A stretch of 64,000 nucleotides of DNA, taken from NCBI RefSeq assembly GCF_058153355.1, contig NZ_CM177019.1; one strand, 5' to 3'. Made by a program: the position numbers and the translations under genes. Below the pieces are notes generated by a model. The model was not told where the DNA came from. It did not search any database and saw only the letters and a list, made by a program, of their open reading frames with translations. Of this stretch, positions 38,935 through 49,139 are shown piece after piece; position 1 is the first letter of the stretch; each line of letters opens with the position of its first letter.

Positions 38935-41076
38935 TCAAAATTCCATTTTCACCGTGAATTGCACTTCACGAGGATCGCCAATCTGGTTGCCCAGATTATT
39001 TGTGGCGATGGAAGAGGTGTAATACGTTTTATCAAACAGGTTTTTGACGTTTAATTGCAGTGTGACCGGATACTGCAATTTCATTTTGTATGCGGCGAAG
39101 GCATCGGCAACAAAATAGCCTGGCAGATAATAGTCAGCCCCATTGGTTGCCGAACGACGGCTTACACCATGTCCACCACCGCCAAACGTCAGTGTGTTAT
39201 TGCCTGGCATGTTATGAATATCATAGGTCAGGAATAGCGAACCGGTATGACGAGGAACATTCGGCAATGGTTTCCCTGCATAATCAGGATCCTCCAGAAC
39301 CTTAGCATCGGTATAGCCGTAGCTGGCAATGATATTAATGTTTTCAGTTAATGCTCCCGCAAGGTCGACTTCTACCCCTCTTGAACGAACACGGCCTGCC
39401 GTTTTGGCAATGGTTTCATCACCAACACTTTCGGTATACAACACATTACGTTTATGGATATCAAACAGCGCAATATCTGCGGTGATACCATCGAATAGCT
39501 CGAATTTTGCCCCGACTTCGTAAGCATTAGATGATTCTGGTGGCAGATCGCCAATGTAGCTGGCAATTGACGATTGCGGCATAAATGTTTGCGAATAATT
39601 GGCAAATAAGGATACCGATGGCGTCAGTTTGTAGACCAATCCCAGTTTGGGAGTCCATTGTTCATCGCGGCTGTCAGTATTGACATTAAAAGGACGGCCT
39701 TTACCCGCATACTGCGTGTAATACTGATAGCGGAGCCCGGCGACGGCAATCCAGTTATCGGTCAGATAGAGTGCGTCCTGTGCATACGCTGAGTAGCTCT
39801 CCTGTTTGATCGTCTGATCACTGTCCGACGCCGAAACCGTTGTGCATTTGCTGGTAATACCATAAACGGGGTTGTAGATATTGAAATCTTTAGCTTTTTT
39901 ACAGCGAATCATATCTGTGCGCAGAAGATCATAATATTCATATGACACCCCACCCAGAATCTCATTATAGAATCCAGCAACATCAACATTCCCTTGCAGA
40001 TCCGCACGAGTAGCATGCATACGCTGGGTAGATCCTTGAGTTGCATCAACACGCCGTGTCAGCGTTCCTGTCGTTGCATCATACGCGGTAACGCGAGCTT
40101 GATTATCGCTGTATTTATCCTGGCTGTAGCTGTAATCAAAGCGCGCTGTCCACTGGCTATTGAGATGATATTCTGCGTTGAGTTGCGCCAGATCGGACTG
40201 ACCATCTGTAATATTAAACGGTTCGTCAAAACGTATTTTTCGATCAACGTTTACGGGCTGTTTCGTCGTAAGGTCGAAAATCGTTCCACGATCGAACGGC
40301 GTTTTATAATCCCGATGAGAATAGAGCATGGTTACTGTTGCATTATCACCAAACCAGGTGAGTGATGGAGCAATAAATGTACTGCGCTCTTTACCGAAGT
40401 TTCGCCAGTAATCTTCATCTTGCACTTCCCCAATAAGGCGATACGCCAGCTGAGTGCCTTCAATGGGACCTGTGATATCCAATTGCCCAGTGCCTCCGCC
40501 AAAACTGGAGGAAGTGGCTGAGACAGTACCATGGAATGTTTTTTCCGGGCGCTTTGTCACGACGTTAATCAGTCCGCCAGGATCGAGAATGCCATACAGC
40601 GTGGAGGCCGGACCTTTTAGCACTTCCACACGCTCTGTGGCGGCGTTGAAACTGCGAGGAAGTACAGTTCGCAGGCCGTTGGTCATGATGGAGCCATCCC
40701 GGTTAGCACCAAACCCACGACGTACAAAAGCATCCTGAGTCCCGCCTAATGTATTGGTCTGTACCACGTTACTGACGTTATAAAGTGCCTCATCCAGCGT
40801 CGTCGCATTCTGATTTTCCAGAACTTGATCGCTAACCGTATTGACCACCTGCGGGATATCCAGCATCGGCATATCGGTTAATGTCGCCGTGGAGGTGCTC
40901 AGAGGTTGATAACCATCGGTCGCCTCAGTTGCGGTATTTGCATCCGCTGTAACAGTGATTGTTTCGCCATCTTTGGTCGTTACAGTGTCGGTTGCATGAA
41001 TCATCGGTGCTGCAAAGAGCAGTGAAAAGAGCGCTCGACCTTTGAGTCCTGAGAATGAAGGTGTGAACATAGCCAT
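38935..41076 (-). CDS. TonB-dependent outer-membrane receptor, siderophore type
   Basis: 713 aa; N-terminal signal peptide, TonB-box-like ETITVTA, plug-domain motifs, beta-barrel with C-terminal aromatic residue (...VKMEF). Confidence 0.85.
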   Translation of the reverse strand: MAMFTPSFSGLKGRALFSLLFAAPMIHATDTVTTKDGETITVTADANTATEATDGYQPLSTSTATLTDMPMLDIPQVVNTVSDQVLENQNATTLDEALYNVSNVVQTNTLGGTQDAFVRRGFGANRDGSIMTNGLRTVLPRSFNAATERVEVLKGPASTLYGILDPGGLINVVTKRPEKTFHGTVSATSSSFGGGTGQLDITGPIEGTQLAYRLIGEVQDEDYWRNFGKERSTFIAPSLTWFGDNATVTMLYSHRDYKTPFDRGTIFDLTTKQPVNVDRKIRFDEPFNITDGQSDLAQLNAEYHLNSQWTARFDYSYSQDKYSDNQARVTAYDATTGTLTRRVDATQGSTQRMHATRADLQGNVDVAGFYNEILGGVSYEYYDLLRTDMIRCKKAKDFNIYNPVYGITSKCTTVSASDSDQTIKQESYSAYAQDALYLTDNWIAVAGLRYQYYTQYAGKGRPFNVNTDSRDEQWTPKLGLVYKLTPSVSLFANYSQTFMPQSSIASYIGDLPPESSNAYEVGAKFELFDGITADIALFDIHKRNVLYTESVGDETIAKTAGRVRSRGVEVDLAGALTENINIIASYGYTDAKVLEDPDYAGKPLPNVPRHTGSLFLTYDIHNMPGNNTLTFGGGGHGVSRRSATNGADYYLPGYFVADAFAAYKMKLQYPVTLQLNVKNLFDKTYYTSSIATNNLGNQIGDPREVQFTVKMEF

Positions 41077-41176
41077 TTAGTCTGTTATCCCAAAAACTCG
41101 CGGATTGTCGCGAGTGAAAATTGTTTCTTATTGCTCACTAAGCACTATCCGTTTGTTATTTCGCCATCGGATATGT

Positions 41177-41195
41177 AATTGAGAATCATTCAATC
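41177..41195. promoter_or_regulatory. Candidate Fur box in the divergent control region of the island
   Basis: AATTGAGAATCATTCAATC; the core TGAGAATCATTCA matches the Fur consensus TGATAATCATTAT at 11 of 13 positions. Lies in a 373-bp AT-rich region between the receptor gene and the ABC operon. Confidence 0.45.
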
Positions 41196-41449
41196 ACGCG
41201 GTAATGTAGTAGTAAATGAGAAATAACAAAAAATTGCTACATGTGTTTTTATGAAAGGTTTATACAATTTAATTGTTTTTAATTTATTGATATTTAATGT
41301 TTTTATTTGTATGTGCAAAAATATTTTACCTGTTATTTACCTTGTTTTTGTGTGGCTTTTAACTGCTTGACTACTACATTTTGTGGCGTCAAACTCTCAA
41401 AGGAGAATGAGTTTTATTTTTGTTTGTCTTTGATTAAGTTGGCGTACAC

Positions 41450-42259
41450 GTGGCACATAACGCAAAAGGGCAGGGGCTGATCCTCGACAATGTTTCTGCC
41501 GGGTATCACAAGAAAATCATTGTTGATGGTGTTTCTTTCTCCGTTCCCACAGAAAAAATGACCGTTCTGGTTGGGGCAAACGGCTGTGGAAAGTCGACGC
41601 TGCTCAGCACCATTGCTCGTATCTTGCAACCCATGGGCGGTTCGATATTGCTTGATGGCAACGCGATTCACGAGCAACCAACGAAAGCGTTATCCCGTAG
41701 ACTTGGGATCTTGCCGCAGTCGCCATTATTGCCGGAGGGCTTAACCGTTTATGAACTGGTGTCGCGTGGGCGTTTTCCCTGGCAGAATTTCATTCGTCAA
41801 TGGAGCGATGCCGATGAGCTGGCGGTAGAAGAGGCCCTGAAATTAACGGGTACGCAGGAGTTTGCACATTTACCTGTTGAAAAACTCTCTGGTGGGCAGC
41901 GCCAGCGTTGCTGGATTGCGATGGTGTTGGCGCAAAAGACGCCTTATATCCTGCTGGATGAACCCACAACATGGCTTGATTTACGTTATCAGGTTGAAAT
42001 TCTTGAGTTATTACATGATTTAACGCGTCATCACGGGCGTACAGTCGTCGTGGTGTTGCATGATCTGAATTTTGCCGTCAATTATGGCGATACGTTGATA
42101 TTTTTACGCCAGGGGAAAGTGGTGCGTGTGTTGAATGAGGGGGAGCATTGCACGCCTGAGCTGGTAAAAGCGGTCTTTGACGTTGATGTTCACGCATCAA
42201 TAAATCCTCTGACGGGAAAGCCGTTCTTCATGCCGTTTCGTGGTGTAGAAAAAGTATGA
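41450..42259 (+). CDS. ABC transporter ATP-binding protein, FepC/FhuC/FecE-like
   Basis: 269 aa; Walker A GANGCGKST, signature LSGGQRQR, Walker B ILLDEPT, H-loop; apparent GTG start. Confidence 0.85.
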   Translation: MAHNAKGQGLILDNVSAGYHKKIIVDGVSFSVPTEKMTVLVGANGCGKSTLLSTIARILQPMGGSILLDGNAIHEQPTKALSRRLGILPQSPLLPEGLTVYELVSRGRFPWQNFIRQWSDADELAVEEALKLTGTQEFAHLPVEKLSGGQRQRCWIAMVLAQKTPYILLDEPTTWLDLRYQVEILELLHDLTRHHGRTVVVVLHDLNFAVNYGDTLIFLRQGKVVRVLNEGEHCTPELVKAVFDVDVHASINPLTGKPFFMPFRGVEKV

Positions 42260-43239
42260 TGCGCACAGGGCTGGTTACTGTAATTTTCCTCGCCTTACTG
42301 CTGGTGGGATGCGTGGTATATCCAGGGATTGGTGCCCGATTTATTGCACCACAAACGGTGTTGCAGGCATTTCTTCATTTTGATCCGCAAAACTTCGATC
42401 ACAACGTAATTGTAAGACTCCGTTTGCCGCGTTTAGCGGCAGCATTGCTTACCGGTGCTTCTCTTGGTGTTGCTGGTGCTTTGTTGCAGGCTGTCATTCG
42501 TAACCCATTGGGGGAGCCACATATTTTAGGCTTAAATGCCGGAGCCGCTCTTGCTGTCGTTGCCGCCAGTGCGCTTGGACTGGCCTTTCCGATTGGACGC
42601 CCACTGCTGGCATCTACGGGGGGCGCGTTATTGTTCCTGTTGATATTGCTGCTTTCCTCCGCAGGGCGTTCAGGGTTAACGCCAATGAAAGTTACTTTAT
42701 GCGGCGTGGCGCTATCGGCGTTCGTGTCCTCAATAACGGCTGCAATCCTGATTCTTGACGAACAAACACTGCTGGCGATGCGGACATGGCTAGCAGGTGA
42801 TTTAGCGGGGCAGGATTGGGCGACGCTGGGTACGTCCGCCTGGTTTTCTCTGGGGGGATTTGTGTTAGCCCTTTACCTTGCACCCTCCCTTAACATGTTG
42901 GCACTGGGCGATCGCATGGCGCAGGGGCTGGGCGTCTCTGTATTCCGCACGCGAACATTCACCCTGCTTGCGATCGCGTTGCTCTGTGGCGCAGCCGTAT
43001 CGATTGCTGGCCCCATTGGTTTTGTCGGCCTGCTAGTACCGCAGATTGTCCGGCGTCTGGTATCAGCGGATCTGTGCGTTCTGCTCCCTCTTTCAGCTTG
43101 TGTCGGCGCACTTTTGTTATTACTGGCAGATATTATTGCCCGTACGCTTTTCACGCCCCATGAGTTAGCGACCGGTGTCATGACGGCGTTAGTTGGTGCG
43201 CCTGTTTTTGTCATTATGGCGACGAGGATGTTCAAATGA
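42256..43239 (+). CDS. ABC transporter permease, FecCD family (iron-siderophore/B12 type)
   Basis: 327-aa polytopic membrane protein; start overlaps the ATPase stop (ATGA). Confidence 0.85.
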   Translation: MMRTGLVTVIFLALLLVGCVVYPGIGARFIAPQTVLQAFLHFDPQNFDHNVIVRLRLPRLAAALLTGASLGVAGALLQAVIRNPLGEPHILGLNAGAALAVVAASALGLAFPIGRPLLASTGGALLFLLILLLSSAGRSGLTPMKVTLCGVALSAFVSSITAAILILDEQTLLAMRTWLAGDLAGQDWATLGTSAWFSLGGFVLALYLAPSLNMLALGDRMAQGLGVSVFRTRTFTLLAIALLCGAAVSIAGPIGFVGLLVPQIVRRLVSADLCVLLPLSACVGALLLLLADIIARTLFTPHELATGVMTALVGAPVFVIMATRMFK

Positions 43240-44285
43240 GTCGGATAATGAACGTCGGGCTACGCCCACTACGTGTTGGTAAGTTTTCGACACTGGTACG
43301 CCCTAAAAATCTGCTGTTGCTTGGTGGGCTGTTCCTGCTTGCGGTTGGAATACTGATATTCGGTCTGATGCAGGGTTCTTTCTCTGTTCCGGCATCGGAA
43401 GTAGGACGAGCGTTGTTTGCTCCAGAAAACGTAAGCACAGACGCACGTTATATTGTGCAGGATATTCGCTTGCCGAGAGTCATCATGGCATTGCTATGCG
43501 GGGCCATGTTAGGTATGGCAGGGGCCGCAATGCAATCCATTGCACGTAACGGCCTTGCCGATCCTGGTTTAATCGGCGTCAAAGAAGGATGTAGCGTGGC
43601 TGTGCTGTGGCTGATTTTCCAGTTTCCAATGCTGGGAATGTTCTGGCGTCCAGTGGCTGGTCTTGCTGGCGGCCTGTTGGTGGCTTTAATCGTGATTTTT
43701 TGTGCGCGCGATATTTCCCGCCCGCGATTTGTTCTGATTGGTATTGGTGTTTCCTGGTTTTTCGCCGCCGGTATCGGTGTATTTATGACCACTGCAGATG
43801 TTCGAGATGTACAAACTGCATTGATGTGGTTATCGGGAAGCCTGCATGCAGCTAACTGGATGTTAGTCGGTATTTCAGCCTGTTGGATGTTGCCAGCCGC
43901 TCTTTTATTGCTGTTCACCGCCAGGAAGGCGGATATCGCTCTGCTTGGTCATCAGGTGGCAACCGGGTTAGGCGTGAATAGTTCTCGCCTGGCGTTGTTA
44001 CGTGTCGCCGCACCCATAATCCTGACAGCCGTCTGCGTTTCGTGTGTTGGTAACATAGGTTTTGTCGGATTGATAGCACCCCATATATCACGTTTTATTC
44101 TACGTGGCGGGCAGACGACATTACTGCTGGGGAGCGCGGTATCGGGGGCGTTGTTAGTTATTCTGGCGGATAGCATTGGTCGTTTGGCTTTTTTGCCTTT
44201 GCAACTGCCTGCCGGAATCATTATCTCACTGATTGGTGGACCATTTTTTTTGCTACTGCTCTGGCAGCGCAGGAACAGTTTTTAA
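43236..44285 (+). CDS. ABC transporter permease, FecCD family, second subunit
   Basis: 349-aa polytopic membrane protein; start overlaps the upstream stop (ATGA). Confidence 0.85.
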   Translation: MSRIMNVGLRPLRVGKFSTLVRPKNLLLLGGLFLLAVGILIFGLMQGSFSVPASEVGRALFAPENVSTDARYIVQDIRLPRVIMALLCGAMLGMAGAAMQSIARNGLADPGLIGVKEGCSVAVLWLIFQFPMLGMFWRPVAGLAGGLLVALIVIFCARDISRPRFVLIGIGVSWFFAAGIGVFMTTADVRDVQTALMWLSGSLHAANWMLVGISACWMLPAALLLLFTARKADIALLGHQVATGLGVNSSRLALLRVAAPIILTAVCVSCVGNIGFVGLIAPHISRFILRGGQTTLLLGSAVSGALLVILADSIGRLAFLPLQLPAGIIISLIGGPFFLLLLWQRRNSF

Positions 44286-44295
44286 CGGGAGTTAT

Positions 44296-45243
44296 ATGCG
44301 TTTATTTTTTTCTCTGCTGATACTGTTGTCATTTTTTTCCCGTGCAACAGAACCTGTTCAGGTATTTACTGATGATTTAGGGCGCAAAGTCACTGTTCCT
44401 GCTCATCCAAAGAGAATTGTCTCTTTACACGATCTTGATATCACTATTCCTCTGATTGAGCTCGGTGTACCTCCTGTCGCCAGCCACGGGCGAACTCGGC
44501 CTGACGGTAGCCATTTCATTCGATCTGGCGCGTTATTGACAGGTGTCGACTTTGATAATTCATCGATCGCCTTTATTGGTACCGCTGATATTGATATTGA
44601 AGCGATTGTGGCGGCAAAGCCTGACCTGATCATCACAGAACCGACCCGTAATACGCCCATTGAACAACTTGAAAAAATTGCGCCCACGGTGAGCATTGAT
44701 CATCTCAAAGGGGGCGCGCCAGAAATCTATCGCAAGCTGGCAGAACTTACAGGAACGCAGTCGCAGCTGGCGATACTTGAACGCCGCTATCAGGCACAAA
44801 TCAATGCGCTGAAGGCGACGCTGGACAGCCAAAAAATAACGGTATCGGTGATTCAGGCAAACCAGGGAAAAATTAATGTGATGCATAGCTATCATTCGCT
44901 GGGGCGGGTATTACGCGATGCTGGTTTTCGTTTTCCGCCGCTGATTGAGAGCATTCCTGAAGGTGGGCGAATGGATGTGAGCGCGGAGCGTTTACCTGAA
45001 CTGGATGCCGATTTTGTTTTTGCAACCTGGCGCGGTGACACCGGTGGTAAACCTCAGGATGAGCTGGCAGCAATGGAAAAAGTCATGCCGGGATGGTGTC
45101 AGTTTCTGACTGCCTGTCGTTCCGGGCGTTATGTGCTGATTTCTCGTGAAGAGGCAATTTCTAACTCCTTTGCATCTCTGGGGCTGATGGCTGCGCAGAT
45201 ACAATCACAAATTGCAGGGCGACCTCTACCGGAGGCTAAATGA
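44296..45243 (+). CDS. Periplasmic substrate-binding protein, class III (siderophore/heme/B12-type)
   Basis: 315 aa from MRLFFSLLILLSFFSRATEP (signal peptide); typical size and architecture; GGGA ribosome-binding site upstream of the ATG at 44296. Confidence 0.8.
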   Translation: MRLFFSLLILLSFFSRATEPVQVFTDDLGRKVTVPAHPKRIVSLHDLDITIPLIELGVPPVASHGRTRPDGSHFIRSGALLTGVDFDNSSIAFIGTADIDIEAIVAAKPDLIITEPTRNTPIEQLEKIAPTVSIDHLKGGAPEIYRKLAELTGTQSQLAILERRYQAQINALKATLDSQKITVSVIQANQGKINVMHSYHSLGRVLRDAGFRFPPLIESIPEGGRMDVSAERLPELDADFVFATWRGDTGGKPQDELAAMEKVMPGWCQFLTACRSGRYVLISREEAISNSFASLGLMAAQIQSQIAGRPLPEAK

Positions 45244-46127
45244 TCCAGAAAGATAAAGCGCGGGTTGATATTTTTGGTGAGCGTTTTCGCACTCGCGCGA
45301 GTCAGTTAACGCCTGGGTTAAGAGCTGTCGCCAGCTACATTAATGAGCATCGTGAAGTGGTACTCGAGCAAACGGCGATGGAAATTGCGGCCACGTTGAA
45401 CACTTCCGATGCCACAGTTATCAGGGCTATACAGGCCCTGGGGTTTGCCGGGCTGCGTGATCTGAAACGCACTCTGGAACAGTGGCTTGGTCCAGCCCTT
45501 AGTTCCAGCGAAAAGATGTCTACGACGGTGAGTAACTTGACGAGCGATGTTAACACCGCAATCGACTTTGTTCTTGAAGGGCATTTGTATACCTGTAATG
45601 TCCTGTCAGAGCCTGAAAACCGCCACGCGCTTGCGCAAGCTGTAGCGTTGTTGGTGCAGGCACGGCAAGTCGCAATTTTTGGCATTGGCGCTTCGGGTAT
45701 TCTGGCGGACTATACCGCACGACTATTCAACCGCATAGGTTTGCCTGCCACGGCACTAAACCGTACGGGTATTGGCCTTGCCGAGCAACTGATCGCGCTT
45801 CAACGTGGCGATGTTCTGATCATGATGGCGCAAAAATCTGCGCACCGGGAAGGGGTGACGACGCTTCGTGAGGCGAGGCGGCTGGGGATCCCTGTTATTT
45901 TGCTGACAAACGCGCTGGATTCACGTTTTAGCAAAGACGCCAGTATCGTGATTCATGTTCCGCGCGGGGATGAAAAAGGGAAAACGCCGCTACATGGTAC
46001 GGTATTGTTGTGTCTGGAAATGATTGTCTGGTCGGTAGCTTCCGCAGTGCCGCAGCGTGCGGTTAAAACCATTAAGCGAATTAACGATTTCCATCGAGGA
46101 CTGAAAACGGGAAGAAAGAATGGCTAA
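45240..46127 (+). CDS. RpiR-family transcriptional regulator (N-terminal HTH_6 + C-terminal SIS sugar-phosphate-binding domain)
   Basis: 295 aa; HTH region (...QTAMEIAATLNTSDATVIRAIQALGFAGLRDLK) followed by a SIS-like fold (VAIFGIGASGILADYTARLFNRIG...); start overlaps the stop of the binding-protein gene. Confidence 0.75.
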   Translation: MIQKDKARVDIFGERFRTRASQLTPGLRAVASYINEHREVVLEQTAMEIAATLNTSDATVIRAIQALGFAGLRDLKRTLEQWLGPALSSSEKMSTTVSNLTSDVNTAIDFVLEGHLYTCNVLSEPENRHALAQAVALLVQARQVAIFGIGASGILADYTARLFNRIGLPATALNRTGIGLAEQLIALQRGDVLIMMAQKSAHREGVTTLREARRLGIPVILLTNALDSRFSKDASIVIHVPRGDEKGKTPLHGTVLLCLEMIVWSVASAVPQRAVKTIKRINDFHRGLKTGRKNG

Positions 46128-47789: not shown

Positions 47790-49139
47790 TTACCAGCTTA
47801 CTTTCGCCTCAAATCCACCTTGTTCCGCATTCCCAAACTCAACATTCATGCCATGCAGCTTGGCGATTCGCTGGACAATTGAAAGCCCAAGTCCACTGCC
47901 GGTAGCGGTTTGTCCGGGTGGGCGATAGAAGCGTTCGCCAATTCTCGCCAGTGCCTCTGGTGTCACACCGGGGCCGTTATCCCTCACGATGAAATTATCG
48001 GCATTCAGCGTGACGTCCACCACGCTACCTTGTGGACTGTAGCGCACGGCGTTATCCAGCAAATTTCGCACCAACAAACTTAGCAATAGCGGTTGTCCGG
48101 TGCGTTTGATGCCGTGGGCATTGAGTGTCAGTCGCACGTCAATTTTCGCTTGCTGCGCCGTGTGGTAAATATCCATCACCGACGATTGCAGGAGATCTTC
48201 AAGCGGGATCTCCGCGACGTCCTGAAGGTTATCCAGTGAGTCCAGCCGCGATAGCGTGAGCAGTTGATCAACCAGACGAGTAGCACGATCGATTCCGGAA
48301 TGTAATTGAAGCAGCGCTTTTTTCCGCGCCTGCGGATCATCGTCAGAGAGCTGCGCAACTTCGGTTTGCACTTTCAGCGCCGTTAACGGGCTACGAAGTT
48401 CGTGAGCTGCGTCGGAGGTAAAGCGTCGTTCACGAACCATCATCGCATGTGTGCGGGCGAACAGTTGATTCAACGACTCAACCAGTGGACGCACTTCGCT
48501 GGGTACGCCCGTCGCGTTTAGTGGTTTTTCCGAGTCAGGGTCACGCATACGTAGTGCCAGCGCCAGTTTGTTCAGCGGCGCGAGTTCTCGTCCCAATAGT
48601 ACCATCATAATGATTAACATAATCGGCAGTGCGACCAGCCACGGGATCAATTGCCCGGCAACAATCGCCAGCGCCATGTCTTCACGGTATTCCCATTCCT
48701 GACCAACAACGATGCGATATTTGCCATCAGGTGAGGTCATCCAGACAAAACGCCAGGGATCGTCTTCACCGACCAGTTGCCCGTCAGCAAAACCTTCCCG
48801 TTGATAGCTATAGGGAATATCTTCTCCGTTATCGCCATCGTTAAGGACCATTCTGCCGTCGTGGGTAAAGATGGCAAAGGTCAGCGCATCGTCATCAACA
48901 TGACCGTGTTTTAATTTATTTGGCGTCTGTGCCATGCGATCCGCCGCGTTGATTTCGTTGAGATCGAGCGTACTTAACCGTTTGGCAAACAGCATCAGTT
49001 GGGTGTCGAACAACTCATCGACGTTATCCGTTGTTTGTTTCCAGGCGACAAAGCTGGAAAGCAGCCAGGTCACCGAGGCCAGAATTAAAAAGATTAGCGT
49101 CAGCCTGACTCGCAGACTAAGACGTTGGGTAAATTTCAT
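47790..49139 (-). CDS. qseC: Sensor histidine kinase QseC
   Basis: 449 aa; two transmembrane helices, H-box [10 protein letters not shown], HATPase_c. Confidence 0.93.

Follow-up and report, generated by a model that had tools for sequence, protein, structure and literature searches.

Background

The enterobactin system of E. coli K-12 includes the regions fepA-fes, fepD-entS and fepB-entC, in which divergent iron-uptake units share one AT-rich gap with Fur boxes at the promoters; the fepB-entC gap measures 374 bp and carries several Fur sites. Repression loops at divergent promoters are known for NagC at nagE-nagB, for GalR-HU and for AraC. The fit locus of E. coli was reportedly first described by Ouyang and Isaacson in 2006.

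The regulation of fit was subsequently studied by Ouyang & Isaacson (2008, PMC2593036), who showed that the fitA-fitB gap is a bidirectional promoter. Iron deprivation induced lacZ fusions in both directions, fitA was up 23-fold in a fur mutant, purified FitR shifted an intergenic fragment in EMSA, and FitR repressed both directions 2–5-fold independently of Fur; where exactly Fur and FitR bind was left by these authors as future work. The fit system has no known substrate and is iron-induced in Klebsiella (PMC5907654). In the Fur pan-regulon of Gao et al. (2023, PMC10164565) the main text is without mention of the fit genes, and the peaks are found in the supplements only: these hold ChIP-exo peaks in the gap for all three fit-carrying strains (CFT073, 042 and Sakai) and count fitA, fitB and fitC among the members of the accessory Fur regulon. 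The log2 fold changes upon deletion of fur were 8.1 (042), 3.5 (Sakai) and 3.9 (CFT073) for fitA, 5.9, 1.8 and 3.3 for fitB, and 4.6, 1.9 and 2.6 for fitC in the same strains.

The region analysed here shares its locus, genes, parE-side position and 373-bp gap with the published E. coli fit promoter (Ouyang & Isaacson 2006, 2008; Gao et al. 2023). Like the K-12 enterobactin regions it joins divergent iron-uptake units through a single AT-rich gap with Fur boxes at the promoters; unlike them it has an extra local repressor of the RpiR family, duplicated -35 modules and a spacer of constrained length.

Genes and identity of the locus

The DNA under study is a stretch of 64,000 nucleotides, hereafter the window. 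The gap occupies nucleotides 41077–41449, between a gene for a TonB-dependent siderophore receptor and an ABC-transporter operon, and its boundaries are identical in the RefSeq annotation. The receptor gene, fitA (38935–41076, minus strand), is an open reading frame of 713 codons with a TIGR01783 match (7.9e-111) and bears this name in the O157:H7 Sakai record, as do fitC, fitD, fitE and fitR. On the plus strand, fitB (41450–42259; identified by ORF, family scan and RefSeq) specifies a 269 amino acid ABC ATPase from a GTG start, and ORFs and family scans identify the genes that follow it (42256–46127) as fitC and fitD (FecCD-type permeases), fitE (periplasmic binding protein) and fitR. The product of fitR (45240–46127) possesses HTH_6 and SIS domains, as in repressors of the RpiR/MurR type, and its closest solved relatives are RpiR/MurR-family regulators. 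The order of the island, with fitA divergent from fitB, fitC, fitD, fitE and fitR and with parE and ygiN as flanks, agrees with the description of the fit locus in PMC2593036. [quoted passage not shown]

Of 5426 complete E. coli genomes, 1870 have the fit region between parE and ygiN, with an identity of at least 95%. For window positions 40700–41800, only two of the 1870 matching genomes reach at least 99% identity (99.8% and 99.6%), the remaining 1868 lying in the 95–99% band (97.8% among the matches listed); the window's fit allele, as judged from these matches, is from an uncommon lineage. The gap differs from that of CFT073 by 8 mismatches and from that of 042 by 24. fitE is labelled a frameshifted pseudogene in the closest complete genome (99.8% identical; equivalent to about 44296–45243 of the window); its frame is open in the window.

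An earlier note, made from the letters of the window, had described the gap as an AT-rich divergent region of 373 bp, and in size, position and composition this description holds: the gap has a GC content of 30.8%, where the window as a whole has 51.6%, fitA 47.7% and the operon 51.2%, and falls to a minimum of 25.5% inside the gap at 41200–41399.

Conserved blocks in the gap

With each species represented by one genome, a scan recovered 39 orthologous fit loci, the genera named being Escherichia, Enterobacter, Lelliottia, Silvania, Huaxiibacter, Citrobacter, Kosakonia, Kluyvera, Yokenella, Erwinia, Pantoea and Affinibrenneria (12 in all). The identity of FitA across these orthologs is 71–98%, the divergent arrangement is kept in every one of the 39 loci, and the gap lengths range from 369 to 588 bp. 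The alignment of 40 gaps revealed four blocks that are invariant or nearly so, the rest being free to vary. They are box A (TGTAATTGAGAATCATTCAA, 41174–41193), a left module (TGTAGTAGTAAA, 41205–41216), a right module (CTTGACTACTACA, 41366–41378) and box B (41402–41421). Since boxes A and B are conserved across orthologs, they are taken to be functional elements whatever their raw scores.

Fur boxes and Fur occupancy

Fur sites were scored with a matrix of 19 bp, symmetrised, consensus-seeded and derived from 12 known Fur-regulated intergenic regions of K-12; it is a rough instrument, giving 11.5–21.9 bits for the known K-12 sites and 7.9–20.3 bits in leave-one-out scoring. The matrix scan that the earlier note had proposed returned two sites in the gap where the note had recognised one.

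The site of the note, AATTGAGAATCATTCAATC, lies at 41177–41195 exactly as it had stated. Its description as a good match to the Fur consensus was overstated. In that register fewer than 11 of 19 positions agree with the consensus GATAATGATAATCATTATC (8 by hand count); a shift of 2 nt gives the best register (GTAATTGAGAATCATTCAA, 41175–41193, box A), which has 12/19 matches and 10.0 bits. Because 127 strand-positions in the window match the consensus equally well, and because 25% of dinucleotide shuffles of the gap reach 10 bits (P = 0.25), box A is by sequence alone not beyond chance. The mean best Fur score in the shuffles was 8.5 bits. Box A shares a core, GAGAATCATT, which we take to be that of the aerobactin iucA operator of de Lorenzo et al. 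1987; the iucA site presumably fits the consensus well on both flanks, unlike box A.

The best Fur site in the gap is box B (GAGAATGAGTTTTATTTTT, 41403–41421), with 13/19 matches, 15.9 bits and a shuffle P of 0.005. Its first and last bases lie 47 and 29 nt upstream of the fitB GTG, and a weaker site overlaps it 6 nt downstream of its start (41409–41427). Among the 63,982 window positions scored, box B ranks second and box A 13th. In every ortholog box B keeps a fixed offset and scores 8.4–18.2 bits. The 19-mer of box A is identical in 35 of the 40 orthologous regions, while the intergenic sequence flanking it diverges towards random, and in Kosakonia cowanii the site reads GATAATCATT, which is nearer to the Fur consensus (12.3 bits).

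The top match of the Fur matrix in the window is elsewhere, at 48606–48624 (CATAATGATTAACATAATC, 18.2 bits, 16/19), inside qseC as placed by offset. The supplement of Gao et al. (PMC10164565) has no peak for qseC, qseB, ygiZ or mdaB, despite this strong motif.

The ChIP-exo peaks of CFT073 and 042 were mapped onto the window via the genome records of these strains. The fitA-side peak falls at 41186–41198 in both and overlaps box A; the fitB-side peak falls at 41396–41408 (CFT073) or 41399–41411 (042) and overlaps box B. Sakai has an equivalent pair of peaks, 211 bp apart. The mapped peak centres are 7–10 bp off the box centres, on the -35 side; the resolution of this data set is limited, the fhuA peak being about 26 bp from its best Fur motif. 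With peaks on boxes A and B, the site of the earlier note is one of two Fur-occupied places, and its interpretation is supported; the stronger box B lies under the other peak. The iron-responsive divergent transcription by way of Fur that it had proposed agrees with the published lacZ fusions, the fur-mutant data and the ChIP-exo peaks in the gap.

A further Fur peak lies inside fitA, at window positions 39581–39594; its position is equal in CFT073, 042 and Sakai, where its label yqiA is wrong. Within 50 bp on either side of this peak the best matrix score was only 3.5 bits.

That the Fur-like 19-mer of box A is a functionless chance match would accord with its 12/19 matches, with the 127 equal strand-positions and with the shuffle P of 0.25. 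The identity of the 19-mer in 35 of 40 regions amid diverging flanks and the ChIP-exo peak on it speak the other way; this explanation is effectively refuted by the conservation and occupancy data together, and we give it next to no credence. Box A is functional on the strength of conservation and the published ChIP-exo.

Predicted promoters

A simple consensus promoter scan of the region found no promoter. A sigma-70 matrix scan, another of the analyses suggested beforehand, gave as its best plus-strand candidate in the gap TTGACT (41367–41372), 17 nt and CAAACT (41390–41395), with a score of 10.4; this is the predicted fitB promoter, with transcription probably starting near 41402. In other genera its -10 hexamer is CAAAAT or CATGAT, the A at position 2 and the T at position 6 being kept in the orthologs inspected. 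On the minus strand the fitA candidate is weak (5.7), its -10 hexamer TTGAAT (41193–41188) being without the near-universal A at position 2. This hexamer is preceded by an extended TG (41196–41195) and lies 17 nt from an invariant TTTACT (41216–41211), all bases of the TG and the hexamer being likewise invariant; the predicted fitA start is near 41181. Two other candidates were rejected: a -10 hexamer TACATT within the twin modules, the final T of which is not conserved, and a plus-strand promoter TTGAGA-17-TAATGT, the first -10 bases of which are not conserved.

Relative to these predicted promoters, box A overlaps the fitA -10 hexamer and box B overlaps +1 to +20 of fitB or, given a start near 41402, about +2 to +20. 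We put at about 85% the probability that the gap is a bidirectional control region of fit, composed of two back-to-back sigma-70 promoters, each with its own Fur box over the -10 hexamer or the start site. PfitA, directed to the minus strand, would consist of TTTACT (41216–41211), a 17-nt spacer and TG-TTGAAT (41196–41188), and would start near 41181; PfitB, directed to the plus strand, would consist of TTGACT (41367–41372), a 17-nt spacer and CAAACT (41390–41395), and would start near 41402. Box A would serve fitA and box B fitBCDE-fitR. In the presence of iron, Fe2+-Fur on both boxes would block RNA polymerase, and in its absence both promoters would fire. Repression by iron and Fur in both directions (PMC2593036) and the presence of Fur in vivo at two places about 210 bp apart (PMC10164565) have been shown experimentally; the promoter hexamers, the start sites and the assignment of the peaks to boxes A and B are our predictions.

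A simpler scheme would let one Fur site control both promoters, the second motif arising by chance, and AT-rich DNA does yield Fur-like matches easily, as the mean best score of the shuffles indicates. We consider it very improbable. All three strains have two distinct ChIP-exo peaks in the gap (042 has a third), both motifs keep fixed offsets from the promoter modules in the 12 named genera, and the starts of the predicted -35 hexamers are separated by 151 bp, so that one 19-bp site is too short to occlude both promoters.

Twin modules and FitR

The left and right modules share the sequence TTKACTACTACA, which is invariant and occupies the -35 position of both predicted promoters. The left module (TTTACTACTACA, 41205–41216, minus strand) joins the fitA -35 hexamer TTTACT to ACTACA, and the right module (TTGACTACTACA, 41367–41378, plus strand) joins the fitB hexamer TTGACT to the same ACTACA. 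Together they form an inverted repeat in which 13 of 14 positions are complementary (the 41205–41216 side against 41367–41380). The twin-module pattern occurs twice in the window where 0.16 occurrences are expected, and the left 12-mer is found exactly in 40 of 40 regions. The twin ACTACTACA modules are candidate FitR operators, one at each promoter. The earlier note had suspected further elements in the gap; box B, the twin -35-type modules and the conserved central element described below bear this out.

In third-lineage loci from metagenomes, which have the 173–175-bp spacer, the right module reads ATTGACT, not CTTGACT.

It might also be argued that box A is mainly a FitR operator and that Fur acts from box B, spreading along the AT-rich DNA. 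Box A has only 10 bits for Fur and yet is conserved more rigidly than box B, and its initial TGTAAT presumably resembles the half-sites of HexR, an RpiR-family regulator. An EMSA with the RpiR-family regulator, as called for in the earlier note, is already published: the region is bound by FitR, which in the same study represses both directions independently of Fur (PMC2593036). We nevertheless regard this explanation as unlikely. In iron-replete CFT073 and 042 a separate Fur peak rests on 41186–41198, some 210 bp from the fitB-side peak; the deletion of fur affects fitA more strongly than fitB; and the Kosakonia cowanii version of the box is nearer to the Fur consensus. Roles for FitR and Fur at box A are, moreover, compatible with each other.

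Spacer length and the central element

The AT-rich spacer between the modules (41217–41366) is free in sequence and quantised in length. A metagenome scan for box A, undertaken as an independent test, supplied 76 further unique spacers, and among 114 unique variants the module-to-module distance is only 161–163, 173–175 or 183–185 bp, with no intermediates; the three classes have 54, 32 and 28 members. The short class (161–163 bp) is that of the Escherichia/Enterobacter clade, the long class (183–185 bp) is that of the other genera, and the third (173–175 bp) is from metagenomes.

Each spacer is divided by a central element. In the short class the left module is 75 bp from the centre and the right module 86–88 bp; in the long class these distances are 85–86 and 98–100 bp, and in the third class 84–86 and 88–89 bp. 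The half-spacers overall (114 variants) are 75 or 84–86 bp on the left and 86–89 or 97–100 bp on the right, and the difference of 21–22 bp between the short and long classes is shared between the two halves. Ungapped identity between spacers within a class is 0.38–0.58 (0.27 is expected for random sequence), and in the same genomes the flanks vary, the fitA leader being 94–246 nt and the distance from box B to the start codon 28–53 nt. The existence of only three classes, the drifting sequence and the free leader lengths argue that selection acts on the length of each half-spacer, in increments of roughly one turn of the helix. Across natural variants the half-spacers change only in steps of about 11 bp, which is indirect evidence of a phase constraint. 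The AA/TT periodicity of the spacers has its maximum near 11.5 bp; other periods exceed the shuffles too, and the sequences are related.

The central element of the window, TAATTTATTGATA (41280–41292), is IHF-like; entered on the minus strand as TATCAATAAATTA, it is a perfect match to the IHF core consensus WATCAANNNNTTR, and an A/T-only tract lies beside it (41293–41306). Over the 114 spacers its consensus, with the frequency of each base, is T.96 A.96 A.68 N4 T.76 T1.0 G.96 A.89, and its distance to either module is fixed. The TTG, the TA and the 4-nt gap are kept in these variants, the T of TTGAT being found in only 45%. Window-wide, the IHF core alone is not enriched (3 occurrences, 2.4 expected). 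To our knowledge, the fit island is absent from E. coli K-12, the strain generally used to map binding genome-wide.

In 042 alone a third Fur ChIP-exo peak maps to mid-spacer (41291–41303) and adjoins the IHF-like element, of which 042 carries a rare TTAATA variant. No conserved Fur motif that would explain this peak was found among the orthologs scored. The central element was itself considered as a third conserved Fur box and rejected, the 042 peak nearby notwithstanding, its scores ranging from 2.6 to 18.9 bits at shifting positions.

The element may act as an IHF-type bend that holds the two promoter modules in fixed helical phase; such a fixed three-dimensional arrangement of the modules round a central bend would be the most economical reading of the spacer lengths. 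Tentatively, and at slightly worse than even odds, we would go further and picture fit as a phase-locked nucleoprotein switch, in which the TTKACTACTACA modules come face to face across the IHF-bent spacer and FitR, possibly with Fur, bridges or co-occupies both promoters. In resemblance to the loops of NagC, GalR-HU and AraC, fit has two similar candidate sites, each overlapping one predicted promoter, about 160–185 bp apart, with a putative bend site between them and whole-turn spacing. Unlike those loops, the bridging protein at fit is hypothetical, and repression by FitR is only 2–5-fold (PMC2593036).

The fitB start

Reading in frame from a TAA stop, the first start codon is the GTG at 41450, which is also the one used by RefSeq. 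That fitB begins at GTG and is without a clear Shine-Dalgarno sequence, as the earlier note had said, was confirmed: the pairing with the anti-Shine-Dalgarno sequence is -4.0 kcal/mol, compared with -2.6 +/- 2.4 for random 22-mers of the window. The sequence CACGTGGC at the fitB start is kept throughout the Escherichia/Enterobacter clade. Upstream of fitB, most orthologs from Citrobacter, Kosakonia, Yokenella, Erwinia, Pantoea and Affinibrenneria contain an additional segment, GC-rich and hairpin-prone, of about 60–70 nt. It mostly includes AGGAG, or in a few cases GGGAG, together with an ATG that precedes the GTG by four codons. The segment is absent from the Escherichia/Enterobacter clade, and the E. 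coli lineage apparently lost it together with the Shine-Dalgarno sequence.

The fitA leader and candidates rejected

Two hairpins are predicted in the fitA leader, on the minus strand. Hairpin 1 (UAUCCG...CGGAUA, 41146–41173) is at the predicted 5' end of the mRNA and has five pairs in RNAalifold, each with compensatory changes. Hairpin 2 (ACUCGCG-ACAAUC-CGCGAGU, 41096–41115) appears in both the MFE and the centroid folds and is succeeded by UUUUU (41091–41095); a conserved GGGAWAACAGA follows the hairpin, and a hairpin of different sequence takes this position in nearly all orthologs. Hairpin 2 looks terminator-like in E. coli and is a possible attenuation or mRNA-stability element. Between 40900 and 41650 no known RNA family of Rfam matched at E <= 1.

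A perfect inverted repeat of 11 nt (11/11; TTTGTTATTTC at 41152–41162 and GAAATAACAAA at 41220–41230) brackets box A and the left module. As an element in its own right it was rejected, being confined to Escherichia and hence either due to chance or lineage-specific. A leader peptide (MSFIFVCL*) with its ATG at 41407 behind AAGGAG was likewise discarded: this ATG lies within the core of a Fur box, most orthologs have AAAGAG, and neither the stop nor the length is conserved. Small proteins encoded in the spacer were rejected too: a hydrophobic one of 39 amino acids (41251–41370), for example, falls in the unconserved part and has no Shine-Dalgarno sequence, and its composition is an artefact of T-rich DNA. 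No credible small ORF was found in the gap.

Conclusions

Already known are the fit locus and the bidirectional nature of its promoter, which Fur and FitR repress, as well as the occupancy of the gap by Fur. As fit regulation and Fur occupancy are all published, the observation of a Fur-controlled divergent region as first written adds nothing new. The literature searched, which did not extend to the 2006 description of fit, where a Fur box may already be named, holds no motif-level map of the gap, no twin modules, no central element and no quantised spacer; the only new content offered here is the predicted motif-level map together with the quantised spacer, both drawn from the comparison of sequences.

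The fit locus is common in pathogenic E. coli. The base-level map assigns two Fur boxes and adds a candidate FitR operator for each promoter, a central IHF-like site and half-spacers that vary only by whole helical turns, which is the work that the authors of 2008 had left for the future. Should the spacer feature be due to looping or wrapping, fit would offer a compact model from nature for the sharing of a divergent promoter between Fur, a global regulator, and FitR, a local one; and if the phase-locked reading is true, evolution has in effect run a helical-phasing experiment, with 114 natural variants.
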